Part shown: one piece after another, positions 141 to 20,003 of the stretch
How the letters are laid out: each line of letters starts with the position of its first letter
Numbering within the stretch: the stretch's first letter is position 1
Source of the DNA: an uncultured Chlamydiae bacterium
Lineage (GTDB): Bacteria; Chlamydiota; Chlamydiia; Chlamydiales; Parachlamydiaceae
Assembly (NCBI GenBank): GCA_963754655.1
Contig: CAVWGN010000001.1
Span: 2,752,001-2,816,000, forward strand
Reading direction: 5' to 3'
Length of the DNA: 64,000 nucleotides
Program-made: the position numbers and the translations under genes
The notes under the pieces: generated by a model
The model's input: only the letters and a program-made list of their open reading frames with translations
Database searches by the model: none
What the model was told of the DNA's origin: nothing

Positions 141-2501
141 ATGAATCATCTTGGTCAAATCCCGACAGACCTCACAACTTGTTATCCAGCGAATCCGTGG
201 TGCGAAAAATCTTCGAATGGAAGACGAAAACACAATCAAGATTCTTTATATAAGCCTGATCAAAATGGAGAAGAAAAAACTCAACTTGATTCCGAAGCTC
301 AAGAAAAGACTCAGCTTTGTCAAAAAACGATCCGTTTAAAGACTTCCGATACACAAGACAAAAAACCCTCAAAATACCCTAACAAATCTTGGAAGGAACA
401 AGAGCCAGAATTAAGCAGAGGCAAAGATAAAACCAATAAAACTTATCAAAGGGTATATTCAACCGATTCCTACGCGGAAGAGAAGAGACCGCTCAAAACA
501 AAGGAGAGGGAAAGAGAACAAGAATCGTATTACGACATGGGAGAGAAAGATGATTCTCCTGATAAAGGCAATCCACATCCATTCTCTAATCAACGAAACT
601 CCTCTACAAGAAGCAGGCAATTGGGCGGAAACAAACACAATTCTTATCCTGTCAAATCCTCAACTATTTCGCTTGATTTTCAATATTCCTCAAAAACCCT
701 AATGGTGAATTCAAAAAGAGAGAGTTCAACAAATCAACGATCGAATTCTCTTTTGATTCCTTTCAATAAGCAAATAAATGATGCTGCAAGAAATAGTGAT
801 ATTAAAGAGTGTAAAAAAATTCTGAGAGAGATTGAGCAAGCTGGCTTAAGACCAGATGCCTATTCTTACAATCCAATTATTCACCTATTTGTCAGAAAAC
901 AAGATCAGAAGAAGGTTTATGCTGTCTTTGAAGAAATGAAAGCCAAGGAAGTACTTCCCGATGAAGTAACCTATAATTCTTTAATCAATTTATTTGTGAA
1001 AAAAGAAGATGGGGAAGGAGCTTGCGTTGTCTTTGAAGAAATGAAAGCTAAGGGATTGCTTCCCAATGAGGTGACCTATAATTCCTTGATCAATTTATTT
1101 GTGAAAAAAGAAGATCTGATAGGAGCTTACATCGTCTTTGAAGAAATGAAAGCTAAGGGATTGCTTCCCAATGAGGTAACTTATAATTCTTTGATCAATT
1201 TATTTGTGAAAAAAGAAGATGTGATAGGAGCTTACGCCGTCTTTGAAGAAATGAAAGCTAAGAGATTGCTTCCCAATGAAGTGACCTATAATTCTTTAAT
1301 CAATTTATTTGTGAAAAAAGAAGATATGAAAGGAGCTTACGCCGTTTTTGAAGAAATGAAAGCCAAGGGATTGCTTCCCAATGAGGTGACCTATACGTCT
1401 TTGATCAATTTATTTGTGAAAAAAGAAGATGAGACAGGAGCTTACGCCGTCTTTGAAGAAATGAAAGTGCAGGAAGTTCCTCCCAATGAAGTAACCTATA
1501 CATCTTTAATCAATTTATTTGTGAAAAAAGAAGATGTGAAAGGAGCTTTCGCCGTTTTTAAAGACATGCAAGCTAACAGAGTTTCTCCCAATGAGGTGAC
1601 CTATAATTCTTTGATCAATTTATTTGTGAAAAAAGAAGATGTGGAAGTAGCTTACGCAGTTTTTAAAGAAATGAAAGTGCAGGAAGTTCCTCCAAATGAA
1701 GTAACCTATACATCTTTAATCAATTTATTTGTGAAAAAAGAAGATGTGAAAGGAGCTTTCGCCGTTTTTGAAGAAATGCAAGTCAAGGAAGTGCTTCCCA
1801 ATGAGGTAACCTATAATTCTTTAATCAACTTATTTGTGAAAAAAGAAGATGTGAAAAGAGCTTATGCCGTCTTTGAAGAAATGCAAGCCAAGGAAGTGCT
1901 TCCCAATAAAGTGACCTATAATTCTTTAATCAATTTATTTGTGAAAAAAGAAGATGGGACAGGAGCTTATGCCATCTTTGAAGACATGAAAGCTACGGGA
2001 GTGCTTCCCAATGAGGTGACCTATAATTCTTTGATCAATTTATTTGTGAAAAAAGAAGAGGTGAAAGGAGCTTACGCTGTCTTTGAAGAAATGAAAGCTA
2101 ATGGAGTGCTTCCCGATGAAGTGACTTATCAATCTTTGATTGATCTATTGGTTAAGCTTGATTGTCTAGAACAAGCCGAGGTTCTCTTTTCTTCAAAACT
2201 TTCAATTAAAAAGCACATAGTTCAAGGTTCCTTAGATCTTCATGGATTATCATATGGTGTAGCTTTTGTTGCCTTATCCATTTTTATAAAGTCTCATTGG
2301 GAAAGCGAGTCATTCTTTTTAATCACCGGAAAGGGACTTCATTCTCACAGTAAAGACCTTTATCAAATGAGAGACTTTATGATGGAAAAAATAAAGAAAA
2401 AAATTCCTCATGTAATATGCCAAGTTGACCCAAAGAATAAAGGAAGGTTGATCATTAATCGGAAGAAATTATCAGATTTTAATAAAAATAATAATTCTTA
2501 A
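141..2501 (+). CDS. PPR-SMR protein, copy 1 (13 PPR motifs + capping motif + SMR domain)
   Basis: 35-aa repeats of the form EVTY[N/T]SLINLFVKKEDxxGAYAVFEEMxAxxVxP[N/D] match the P-class PPR consensus. C-terminal LDLHG...LITGKGLHS is the SMR/Smr signature. Start placed at ATG 141 (MNHLGQIP, as in copy 2) after AAAGGTGG; the ORF is open from 120. Confidence 0.93.
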   Translation: MNHLGQIPTDLTTCYPANPWCEKSSNGRRKHNQDSLYKPDQNGEEKTQLDSEAQEKTQLCQKTIRLKTSDTQDKKPSKYPNKSWKEQEPELSRGKDKTNKTYQRVYSTDSYAEEKRPLKTKEREREQESYYDMGEKDDSPDKGNPHPFSNQRNSSTRSRQLGGNKHNSYPVKSSTISLDFQYSSKTLMVNSKRESSTNQRSNSLLIPFNKQINDAARNSDIKECKKILREIEQAGLRPDAYSYNPIIHLFVRKQDQKKVYAVFEEMKAKEVLPDEVTYNSLINLFVKKEDGEGACVVFEEMKAKGLLPNEVTYNSLINLFVKKEDLIGAYIVFEEMKAKGLLPNEVTYNSLINLFVKKEDVIGAYAVFEEMKAKRLLPNEVTYNSLINLFVKKEDMKGAYAVFEEMKAKGLLPNEVTYTSLINLFVKKEDETGAYAVFEEMKVQEVPPNEVTYTSLINLFVKKEDVKGAFAVFKDMQANRVSPNEVTYNSLINLFVKKEDVEVAYAVFKEMKVQEVPPNEVTYTSLINLFVKKEDVKGAFAVFEEMQVKEVLPNEVTYNSLINLFVKKEDVKRAYAVFEEMQAKEVLPNKVTYNSLINLFVKKEDGTGAYAIFEDMKATGVLPNEVTYNSLINLFVKKEEVKGAYAVFEEMKANGVLPDEVTYQSLIDLLVKLDCLEQAEVLFSSKLSIKKHIVQGSLDLHGLSYGVAFVALSIFIKSHWESESFFLITGKGLHSHSKDLYQMRDFMMEKIKKKIPHVICQVDPKNKGRLIINRKKLSDFNKNNNS
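753..2117 (+). repeat. 13 x 105-bp PPR-coding tandem repeat
   Basis: 1365 bp = 13 x 105, from LIPFN to the final PD. Confidence 0.95.
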
Positions 2502-2756
2502 TTAATATATCATTAAAAGCTTAGGATCATTTTCTTGCAAATGTAAAGATAGCTTCTTACTCATGGCACTCTTAACAAATCCGAAAACTTAACAAAGCAA
2601 AGAACTTAAAAAAGCAGAGAATATGATAAACCTCTCTAGTTTCTATTTAAATTGAATTTAGGTTGCTATATATTAAGTTTTGTCTTATCTTTTATAGAAT
2701 TATAAAATAAAATTATATCATTAATTTAATTTAAAATAAGTAAAGGTGAATATTTT

Positions 2757-18601: not shown

Positions 18602-19323
18602 GCTAATGAAATATCAAATTCGAACATATATGTCTATAAATTTGTCAACAGTTCGCAGCCCTTTGATAAGTTTCATTGGCTTTGTCTTTGCCTCTGCTTA
18701 ATTCTTGCCCTTGTTTCTGCCAAGATTTGTTAGGGAATTCCGAGGATTTTTCCTTTTGTGTATAGGGAGTTGTTAAATGGACCGTTTTTTGAAAAAGCTC
18801 AGTCTTTTCTGGAGCTTCGGAATCGAGCCGAATTTTCTTTTCTCCTTTTTGAGCATCTTTATATGAGATAGAATCTTGATTTTGTTCTCGTCTTTCATTC
18901 GATTTTTCAGAACTCCATGGATTTACTGGATAACGAGGTGTTGGATCTATCGGAATTTGTTCAAAATTATTCATAAATATCAACCTTAATGATTTTAAAT
19001 TGAATCATTGATTTAATTTTATTTTTAATTTTTAAAAATACTATTAAAGATATGATGAAAATCAATAGATAGCAACCTAAATTCCTAATTTAAATAGAAG
19101 TCTATCCTATCTTCGGCTTGTTAAAAGTGCCATAAGAAGCCATCTTTGCATTTGCGAGAGAATGTTAATTAATTTGCTATTAATAACTGATGAGTTGCGC
19201 TGATCGAAGAAGGGATATCGATTACCTTTATTAAGAGAATCCTTTCTATTTCTTATAGTAAGAATGTTATAAAGAGCCATCTTTACTACAAGGAAATGAT
19301 CTTAAGATGTAACGACAAATTAA

Positions 19324-20003
19324 TTAATACTGGTTTGATTTCTTTCGGTGAATGATCAGCCTTCCTTCATTCTGTGGGTCAACGTGGCATTCTAAATGAG
19401 AAATTTTTTCTTTTATTTTTTTCATCATAAAGTCTCTCATCTGATAAGGGTCTTTACCGTGAGAATGAAGCCCCTTTCCAGTAATTAAAAAGAATGTGTC
19501 ATTTTCCCAATGAGATTTTATAAAAATGGATAAGGCGATAAAAGCGGCACCATGCGATAGCCTGTGAAGATCTAATGAATCTTGACTCATGAGCTTTTTA
19601 ATTGAAAGTTTTGAAGAAAAGAGAACCTCGGCTTGTTCTAGACAATCAAGCTTAACCAATAGATCAATTCTGATCTTGTTTTCTGACAAATAGGTTAATA
19701 ATTGGATTGTAAGAATAGGCATCCGGCCTTAAGCCTGCTTGCTCAATTTTTTTCAGAATTCTTTTGCACGCTTCACTGTCATAATTTCTTGCAGCTGCAT
19801 TTATTTGTTTATTGAAGGGAATCAAACGAGGATCCGATCGTTGATTTGTTGAACTCTTCCTTTTTAAACTCATTGATGGGGGTTTTGGGTGGTATTGATG
19901 ATCAAGAAGCAAAGGATTCAAAGATTTGGTGTGATAAAGATTGTGTTTGTTTCCATTTCCGTCCCATTGTCTACTTATTATGGATGAGTTCCGCTGATCG
20001 AAG
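19324..20003 (-). pseudogene. PPR-SMR copy 6: 5'-truncated, repeat array deleted
   Basis: Repeat 2 (…RKQDQ) is joined directly and out of frame to the capping motif IDLLVKLDCLE near 19668; SMR follows. Confidence 0.88.

Follow-up and report, generated by a model that had tools for sequence, protein, structure and literature searches.

An expanded cluster of PPR-Smr genes with code-readable repeat arrays in a parachlamydial genome: candidate sequence-specific RNA endonucleases

The window analyzed here, a stretch of 64,000 nucleotides (nt) from the genome of an uncultured chlamydial bacterium of the Parachlamydiaceae (GenBank assembly GCA_963754655.1, contig CAVWGN010000001.1, positions 2,752,001 to 2,816,000 of the forward strand), carries part of a cluster of genes whose products join an array of pentatricopeptide repeats (PPRs) to a C-terminal Smr domain. 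These are bacterial PPR-Smr proteins of the eukaryotic type: a chlamydial version of a known architecture, distinguished by unusually homogeneous arrays whose base code can be read and by a recent expansion into a ten-unit cluster. We tentatively propose, giving it somewhat less than an even chance, that the family comprises exported, sequence-specific RNA-binding endonucleases directed against non-self RNA.

Organization of the PPR-Smr cluster

The cluster extends over 35.4 kb and contains ten PPR-Smr gene units, six intact and four broken by insertion sequence (IS) elements or frameshifts. Six units, three of them intact (W1, W2 and W4), lie in the window (Table 1), and their open reading frame (ORF) products in the six-frame listing are 793, 857, 349, 897, 406 and 132 amino acids (aa) long for W1 to W6; the other four, of 968, 768+177 (frameshifted), 966 and 928 aa, are found in the 19 kb upstream of the window. 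The six intact units thus maintain open frames of 793-968 aa through highly repetitive DNA. In each of them, as well as in a 610-aa paralog outside the cluster, the PPR tract is directly followed by the C-terminal Smr domain in a single polypeptide. W1 begins with a polar region of about 205 aa, which leads via one PPR-like lead-in motif into 12 PPR motifs, a cap motif and the Smr-like domain (its 105-nt array spans 917-2137); W2 and W4 have, respectively, 14 and 15 PPR motifs between a lead-in motif and the cap that precedes the Smr domain, which in W2 shows LDLH and TGKG. The likely start of W1 is at 141, where it is preceded by AAAGGTGG, and W2 is preceded by the Shine-Dalgarno-like sequence AAAGGTGA.

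An earlier note on this stretch, made from its letters alone, had recognized six paralogs with a PPR and Smr architecture in what proves to be a chlamydial genome. The ORFs and the Pfam PPR_2 model recover all six copies where it had placed them (13, 15, 6, 16, 5 and 0 PPR stretches in W1 to W6), and the architecture is upheld by PPR_2, the Smr fold and the LDXH/TGXG motifs; only three of the six copies are intact, however, and the family is larger, with ten units and two outliers. Genome-wide, 145 PPR_2 matches are confined to the cluster and two other loci, and the C-terminal domain is found 11 times. The two outlying paralogs are divergent. The 610-aa protein has divergent repeats and an Smr-like end that is 32% identical, whereas the 667-aa protein, at about 1.74 Mb on the same contig (local coordinates 1993-3996, minus strand), has 10 less homogeneous motifs, lacks the Smr domain and has, at its C-terminus, short acidic repeats and an end that resembles a coiled coil. 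A gene with leucine-rich repeats adjoins the latter.

The PPR arrays and their predicted base code

The Pfam models PPR_2, PPR_1, PPR, PPR_3 and PPR_long all match far above their cut-offs (PPR_2 at 197-666 bits against 30), and Tandem Repeats Finder delineates 105-nt arrays with 86-90% matches; by these profiles and the 35-aa period, the repeats are classified as P-class PPRs. From ten gene pieces of the cluster we extracted 123 in-register motifs, which, after removal of 16 first and cap motifs, left 107 internal repeats. These have a mean identity of 79% at the amino-acid and 87% at the nucleotide level, and 106 of the 107 are distinct; to call them near-identical, as the earlier note did, is an overstatement.

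Specificity in PPR proteins is described by a published code, in which N at position 5 reads a pyrimidine and S or T a purine, and a final D goes with U or G and a final N with C or A (PMC12733224; papers are cited here by identifier, and for those portions of their text that were available). In the 107 repeats, position 5 is T in 57, N in 49 and S in one, i.e. always one of N, T or S, and position 35 is N in 59, D in 42, and T or H in three each, leaving N or D in 101. The resulting pairs are TN (30), NN (28), TD (25), ND (17) and SN (1), which together make 101 canonical repeats, besides NH (3), TT (2) and NT (1). Because N and T alternate at position 5 and N and D at position 35, the published code yields all four bases, and each of the four base classes is indeed covered. 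The two positions vary independently of each other (Fisher p 0.54). The predicted strings are 12-17 nt long and differ for each intact gene.

To see this variation in context, non-synonymous diversity at each position can be set against the overall synonymous diversity (piS), of which the overall non-synonymous diversity is 0.42. The highest ratios are found at positions 18 (1.49), 33 (1.44), 31 (1.39), 5 (1.33), 30 (0.98) and 35 (0.91). Positions 5 and 35, ranking 4th and 6th of 35, are among the most variable sites, yet their alphabet remains narrow and canonical. When the closest paralogs are compared, collinearity is confined to the first and cap repeats, the internal repeats having no positional partner, and the code pair of a repeat agrees with that of its most similar repeat in only 3-7 of 16-18 cases. 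The backbone is therefore under concerted evolution while the code is independent of it. This is the part of the comparison with transcription activator-like (TAL) effectors, made in the earlier note, that holds: a homogenized backbone, a varying canonical code and strings that differ between paralogs. The analogy is only partial, because four other positions (18, 33, 31 and 30) vary like the code positions. Repeats of the relatives appear to be less homogeneous, which rests on few cases: the regular-expression parsing of their repeats was crude and succeeded for two of six ORFs in other chlamydial loci and seven of 151 stored proteins.

The C-terminal Smr domain

The domain following the PPR tract scores 14.8-20.9 bits against the Pfam Smr model (PF01713, gathering cut-off 25.7), and because this is below threshold its assignment rests on fold and motifs. 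In the AlphaFold model (pLDDT 90.1) the domain is predicted to adopt the Smr fold, the first 12 rows of a Foldseek search with it being Smr entries throughout (probabilities 0.91-1.00). The eight aligned cluster copies have the motifs LDLH and TGKG, and the 610-aa outlier has LDCH and TGIG; in the window, LDLH(G/R) and TGKGLHS are present in the C-terminal domains of all copies except the broken W3, which reads TGKR. An LDXH motif near the start combined with a central TGXG, as opposed to HGXG, is the mark of Smr subfamily 2, the mostly eukaryotic subfamily with proven nuclease activity (PMC3858433). Judged by these motifs, the chlamydial domain belongs to this subfamily, which includes B3BP/N4BP2, LdCSBP, GUN1 and SOT1. 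Between paralogs, the ratio of non-synonymous to synonymous substitution rates (dN/dS) is 0.32 for the cap and Smr region (21 pairs): the Smr domain is under purifying selection. No other Smr-like sequence besides these copies is found in the genome.

A profile of nine aligned paralogous C-terminal domains (A1; eight cluster copies and the outlier) was searched against 1.84 billion proteins and retrieved 198 representatives at E ≤ 0.001, including 60 at ≤ 1e-10. Among the best 100 of these 198 relatives, PPR_2 is present in 68 and Pfam Smr, counted at any place in the protein, in 13 (best 3.7e-21); of 18 relatives consisting of the domain only, seven match Smr at E ≤ 0.01. A search for related loci with the same profile returned three loci in betaproteobacterial metagenome-assembled genomes, 33-41% identical over 42-78 residues, which are presumably ordinary Smr genes. 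In a PDB sequence search with the domain profile, spurious ferritin rows came first and the N4BP2 Smr domain appeared only at E 0.14-0.29; these matches were discarded. Word-index homolog searches with the two ends (C-terminal: proteins of 436-1388 aa; N-terminal: 471-1500 aa) did not return even the self match.

The N-terminal region

The N-terminal regions of the three intact window genes are 206-216 aa long and consist of S, K, Q, E, N, T, R and D to 64-71%, in agreement with the region of roughly 200 residues rich in S/K/Q/E/N that the earlier note had described. Their composition alone suggests that they are disordered. The highest 19-residue hydropathy is 0.19 in the three intact window genes; hence, there is neither a signal peptide nor a membrane helix. 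The region would carry a type III export signal and perhaps also a signal for localization in the host. Its dN/dS between paralogs is 0.69 (15 pairs), against 0.32 for the cap and Smr region.

Genomic setting and phyletic distribution

The genome (3.16 Mb in two contigs, 96.7% complete) holds the cluster inside its 3.12-Mb contig, flanked by bacterial genes: an MFS transporter and a LysR gene upstream, and an EamA transporter, an ABC transporter, tgt, galE, PolX, rpoA and a gene of the GrgA transcription factor family (2.5e-42, short of the equivalog cut-off) downstream. GrgA we take to be specific to chlamydiae. The starts of the PPR-Smr genes are preceded by Shine-Dalgarno-like sites, the genes have no introns, and bacterial IS elements are inserted in copies; the G+C content is 0.356 in the cluster and 0.388 in the genome. 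Correct assembly is favored because all 107 internal repeats differ at the nucleotide level. That the genes are eukaryotic contamination or product of a chimeric assembly, a possibility raised in the earlier note, might be suspected from the eukaryotic type of the architecture and from the nearest large ESM Atlas clusters, which are algal PPR/Smr proteins (scores of about 0.91, a lead only). In view of the bacterial neighbors on both sides, the IS insertions, the Shine-Dalgarno-like sites and the nucleotide-distinct repeats, to which the similar G+C content and the lack of introns can be added, contamination or a collapsed assembly is exceedingly improbable. The setting is bacterial, of the Chlamydiota.

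PPR_2 was found in five of 41 related genomes including the source genome: in none of the three congeners and in three of 24 others of the family. No other genome in this survey has more than 13 matches, as against 124 in the source genome. The profile of the C-terminal domain has matches in 27 of the 400 genomes scored from the phylum, which represent 20 of 212 genera, one congener among them, usually with 1-3 matches each as against 11 here. In other chlamydial genera (G121, G301, G087), two or three PPR-Smr-type genes stand side by side; G301, for example, has three in about 4.5 kb and G087 three in about 4 kb. Judging from these loci, small tandem clusters seem to recur in chlamydiae, none near ten units. 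A domain tree of 83 rows (built without library hits of rank below 70, the broken W3 copy and any domain that covers fewer than 85 of the 110 positions of the model) unites nine cluster copies in one clade (100/96) with short branches, and places the 610-aa outlier with a homolog of another genus (96/92). Thus the survey of the Chlamydiae and the domain phylogeny that the earlier note had called for point to an old, patchy chlamydial family that expanded recently in this lineage.

Proposed function and its alternatives

[quoted passage not shown] There, the PPR tract would bind single-stranded RNA over 12-17 nt, one base per motif via residues 5 and 35, and the Smr domain would cut the bound RNA nearby, as it does in plant SOT1; each paralog would read a different RNA sequence. 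The family probably evolved by tandem gene duplication, with recombination within and between arrays homogenizing the backbone but not the code residues, and copies being lost by IS insertion and frameshifts. As context in favor of an effector role there are a Chlamydiota genome with an SctV/FHIPEP gene, N-termini with no hydrophobic segment, neighbors of the IpgD/SopB type and with DUF4116 repeats, a patchy distribution, the short-branched clade of the nine cluster copies, and predicted targets that are not enriched in the bacterium's own genome. The type III apparatus is represented by one SctV/FHIPEP gene (754 bits).

Several observations weigh against this proposal. Four of the ten cluster units are broken, which fits birth-and-death turnover and equally a decaying family. 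The Pfam Smr model stays below threshold in all copies scored (14.8-20.9 against 25.7 bits), and Foldseek gave no match at E ≤ 0.001, the best being 5.4e-3. The non-code positions 18, 33, 31 and 30 are as variable as the code positions, so part of the repeat diversity may be plain relaxation. Several plant PPR-SMR proteins, moreover, are not known to be nucleases: pTAC2 lacks TGXG, and GUN1 alone among eight PPR-SMR proteins of Arabidopsis has both motifs, in the available text of PMC3858433. Matches to the predicted targets in the bacterium's own genome have also to be considered. Six predicted patterns have 0, 1, 0, 230, 0 and 0 exact matches there, against shuffled-pattern means of 0, 0.2, 0, 219, 0.1 and 0.6, and the predicted strings are thus not enriched; since exact-code matching is crude, the lack of own-genome targets is weak evidence. 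One pattern, U4, has three one-mismatch matches against a shuffled maximum of two, and 65 two-mismatch matches against a maximum of 42. As these near-matches fall outside the PPR loci and are evenly distributed between the strands (32/33), we read the excess as compositional.

The main rival, somewhat unlikely in our estimate, is that these are secreted sequence-specific RNA binders which do not cut, their PPR tract blocking, stabilizing or re-localizing host RNA. Here the Smr domain would be a docking module for ribosomes, proteins or nucleic acids, comparable to that of collided-ribosome sensors or of a plastid polymerase subunit. Most P-class PPR proteins act through binding alone, which counts for this alternative. 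So does MutS2 of Bacillus subtilis, which is reported to split ribosomes and leave the mRNA uncleaved (PMC10897456). What speaks for cutting is that the nuclease-linked LDXH and TGXG motifs (PMC3858433, PMC6662315) are kept in the aligned copies and that the Smr domain is under purifying selection. If the proteins are instead an arsenal for defense or competition, aimed at the RNA of viruses or rival microbes co-infecting the amoeba, their rapid diversification and birth-and-death turnover would be accounted for; a SWIM protein next to the cluster matches the PADLOC candidate-defense model PDC-S62 (7e-16), and the protection of amoebae by their symbionts has been described (PMC3991601, PMC6520448). 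Nevertheless, this is quite unlikely: W1 has no match in PADLOC, and a scan of viral contigs with the A1 profile found no relative. One predicted 17-nt target has three isolated exact matches in IMG/VR against none for one control matched in composition, which is at noise level and uninformative; the other predicted strings have fewer than 14 fixed bases or would be swamped by chance matches.

It is very unlikely that the family consists of housekeeping factors processing the bacterium's own RNAs, in the manner of organellar PPR proteins. Plant PPR-SMR proteins do act on organellar, that is bacterial-type, RNAs (PMC6662315), and the chlamydial sequences have no demonstrable secretion signal, both of which are in keeping with such a role. 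A housekeeping function is hard to reconcile with the absence of PPR_2 matches from all three congeners and from 21 of the 24 other genomes of the family, with the pseudogenes among the cluster units (four of ten), with predicted targets that are not enriched in the own genome, and with a recent, lineage-specific expansion. More unlikely still is that the genes have little function, representing a horizontally acquired eukaryote-like gene that was amplified by recombination and IS activity and is now decaying. The broken units, the IS-rich cluster and the relaxed N-terminus (dN/dS of 0.69) are compatible with decay, but six units keep their long open frames over highly repetitive DNA, the Smr dN/dS is 0.32, and the canonical code alphabet is retained in 101 of 107 repeats.

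Returning to the proposed exported RNA endonucleases, a stronger version, which is doubtful but deserves mention, is that they form a fast-evolving arsenal of natural ‘designer’ PPR-Smr RNases, in which repeat shuffling creates new specificities and the products are injected against host, organellar or competitor RNAs. If true, this arsenal would be the RNA-level counterpart of the TAL effectors, with targets that can be read from the gene sequence. If exported and following the code, the proteins would be the first bacterial effector family with RNA targets readable directly from the gene, they would demonstrate that the consensus-like, code-only-variable design of engineered PPRs occurs naturally, and an RNA-directed class would be added to chlamydial effector repertoires otherwise known for protein-interaction repeats. 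One genome supplies six intact natural variants, and the predicted strings of 12-17 nt make the hypothesis directly testable. A useful scaffold is possible too, given the bacterial expression background and the compact nuclease-type domain to which the arrays are coupled.

Relationship to known PPR and repeat-code systems

The PPR-SMR architecture is described as almost exclusive to eukaryotes that bear plastids, Legionella longbeachae being noted as an exception (PMC3858433), and SOT1 is a sequence-specific RNA endonuclease that could be re-engineered for other targets (PMC6662315). Since SOT1 and the proteins of Legionella were known before, the earlier note's suggestion that a programmable PPR-SMR RNase could be new in principle is not supported. 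PPRs are also listed among the repeat types of environmental chlamydiae in a 2024 review (PMC11323580). Neither a PPR-Smr family in chlamydiae nor the present expansion was found to be described in the literature, subscription journals and supplements not being covered.

The closest known systems can be compared as follows. The plant PPR-SMR proteins: SOT1/PPR53, GUN1 and pTAC2/PAP2 likewise have a P-class PPR tract followed by a C-terminal subfamily-2 Smr domain, with both LDXH and TGXG being present in GUN1 (PMC3858433). The chlamydial proteins differ from these in that they are bacterial, have a polar N-terminus and lack an organelle context; their repeats are far more homogeneous (79%), with almost wholly canonical code residues; they form ten clustered paralogs rather than single diverged genes; and their Smr sequence is divergent, below the Pfam threshold. 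Hence, the architecture is common to both, yet the chlamydial genes are not members of the organelle-targeted plant clade. The L. longbeachae proteins: the genome of this bacterium has Llo1404 and Llo2643, with PPR types including ‘PPR, coiled-coil’ (PMC2824747). These represent the PPR-SMR type in another amoeba-associated intracellular bacterium, and the PPR proteins are regarded as eukaryote-like putative effectors from horizontal transfer (PMC3858433, PMC2824747). The ‘PPR, coiled-coil’ entry, Llo2643 (PMC2824747), is paralleled by the 667-aa outlying paralog. Unlike the chlamydial family these are two genes without an expansion, and the comparison is by description only, the texts not stating which of the two bears the Smr domain. 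No functional work on them was found in the available text of the literature pairing longbeachae with pentatricopeptide.

The designer PPRs: consensus arrays (dPPR, cPPR, SynthPPR) are much resembled by the chlamydial ones, which are natural, differ by 21% from repeat to repeat, vary also at positions 18, 30, 31 and 33, and are fused to Smr. The TAL effectors of Xanthomonas and Ralstonia: by analogy only, these share homogenized tandem repeats with one or two specificity residues per repeat, and are secreted bacterial proteins with paralogs carrying different strings and with repeat recombination, secretion of the chlamydial proteins being putative. TAL effectors have a different fold, bind DNA and not RNA, and their repeats hardly differ except at the repeat-variable diresidue, whereas the chlamydial repeats vary at further positions and come without an activation domain. 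The type III effectors with PPR or PPR-like repeats: RipL of Ralstonia and Mlr6331/Mlr6361 of Mesorhizobium are thought to be eukaryote-acquired (PMC10654456, PMC13667924). RipL has four predicted PPRs and no Smr domain, and the rhizobial units are repeats of 40-45 aa joined to a domain resembling RNA-dependent RNA polymerases (PMC10654456, PMC13667924); in the portions of these papers available, no readable canonical code and no clustering of genes is reported for either of them.

Features of the window and neighboring genes

The cluster genes and the mobile elements among them are collected in Table 1.

Table 1. PPR-Smr gene units and mobile elements of the cluster within the window (coordinates are those of the window).
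Feature	Position	Strand	Basis and remarks
W1, intact PPR-Smr	141..2501	+	ORF open from 120; PPR_2 1.5e-165, 13 stretches
W2, intact PPR-Smr, 857 aa	2757..5330	+	PPR_2 3.1e-183, 15 stretches; Smr 16.6 bits
W3, chimeric and truncated PPR copy	6706..7755	+	PPR_2 1.3e-62, 6 stretches
W3 cap and Smr part, broken	7873..8235	+	four stop codons in the homologous stretch; TGKG changed to TGKR
IS110-family transposase	8492..9529	+	PF01548 1.9e-21
DDE (IS4-type) transposase	10407..11534	+	PF01609 5.6e-14
W4, intact PPR-Smr, 897 aa from first TTG	12722..15415	-	PPR_2 9.8e-206, 16 stretches
W5, 3' part of IS-split copy	15642..16862	-	PPR_2 2.7e-59, 5 stretches
IS607-like element inserted in W5	16837..18601	-	Pfam matches
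W5, detached 5' fragment with N-terminal residues, 112 aa	18645..18983	-	ORF listing
W6, collapsed frameshifted remnant, array gone	19324..19921	-	PPR_2: 0 stretches

W3 starts with an unrelated N-terminus containing one hydrophobic helix, which is joined in the middle of a PPR motif and followed by 5-6 motifs up to a stop at 7755. The 3' part of W5 retains a partial N-terminal region, the lead-in, four PPR motifs, the cap and Smr; the element splitting it encodes a TnpB (OrfB_IS605 and Cas12f1-like TNB) and a serine-recombinase TnpA. W6 retains the lead-in and first motif (19664-19921), the cap and Smr domain after them (19324-19722, LDLHR) being in a different frame. The IS110 and DDE transposase genes sit between the plus-strand and the minus-strand halves of the cluster. 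An 82-nt tandem repeat at 11887-12071 (2.3 copies, 89% matches), which contains a GC-rich palindrome, adjoins the DDE transposase, and short ORFs at 5792-6410 (plus strand), in the gap between W2 and W3, by eye resemble a degraded transposase with helix-turn-helix and DDE-like pieces. Searches with PADLOC gave weak matches of the outlying paralogs that fall in their repeats, and Rfam found no family in positions 1-24000 of the window.

Directly flanking the cluster is the gene for the SWIM zinc finger protein (21302-23089, minus strand, 595 aa). An IpgD/SopB-type phosphoinositide phosphatase homolog follows at 24576-26639 (plus strand; PF05925 at 98.6 bits, cut-off 22; NF011905 at 3.3e-86, below its cut-off), an effector-like gene about 4.6 kb past the end of the cluster, and at 28821-30050 (minus strand) another tandem-repeat protein, of 409 aa, contains 12 DUF4116 repeats (557 bits). 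More distant genes code for a non-specific DNA/RNA endonuclease (39593-40498, plus strand; PF01223 1.5e-56), a protein with a HipA C-terminal domain (48833-49759, plus strand; 6.1e-46) and an IS256 transposase (51899-53101, minus strand; 3.1e-114).

Among the PPR-Smr units upstream of the window there is a 213-aa ORF (plus strand, local coordinates 10507-11148) that matches nothing in Pfam and, going by its long hydrophobic segment of two lobes, may be a protein of the inclusion-membrane type. A 17-nt tandem unit is found in three copies at 2571-2621, about 70 nt past the stop of W1, and again in two copies at 8305-8338, beyond the remains of the W3 Smr domain. The unit was apparently duplicated along with the genes, and it may serve as a signal at their 3' side or between them.

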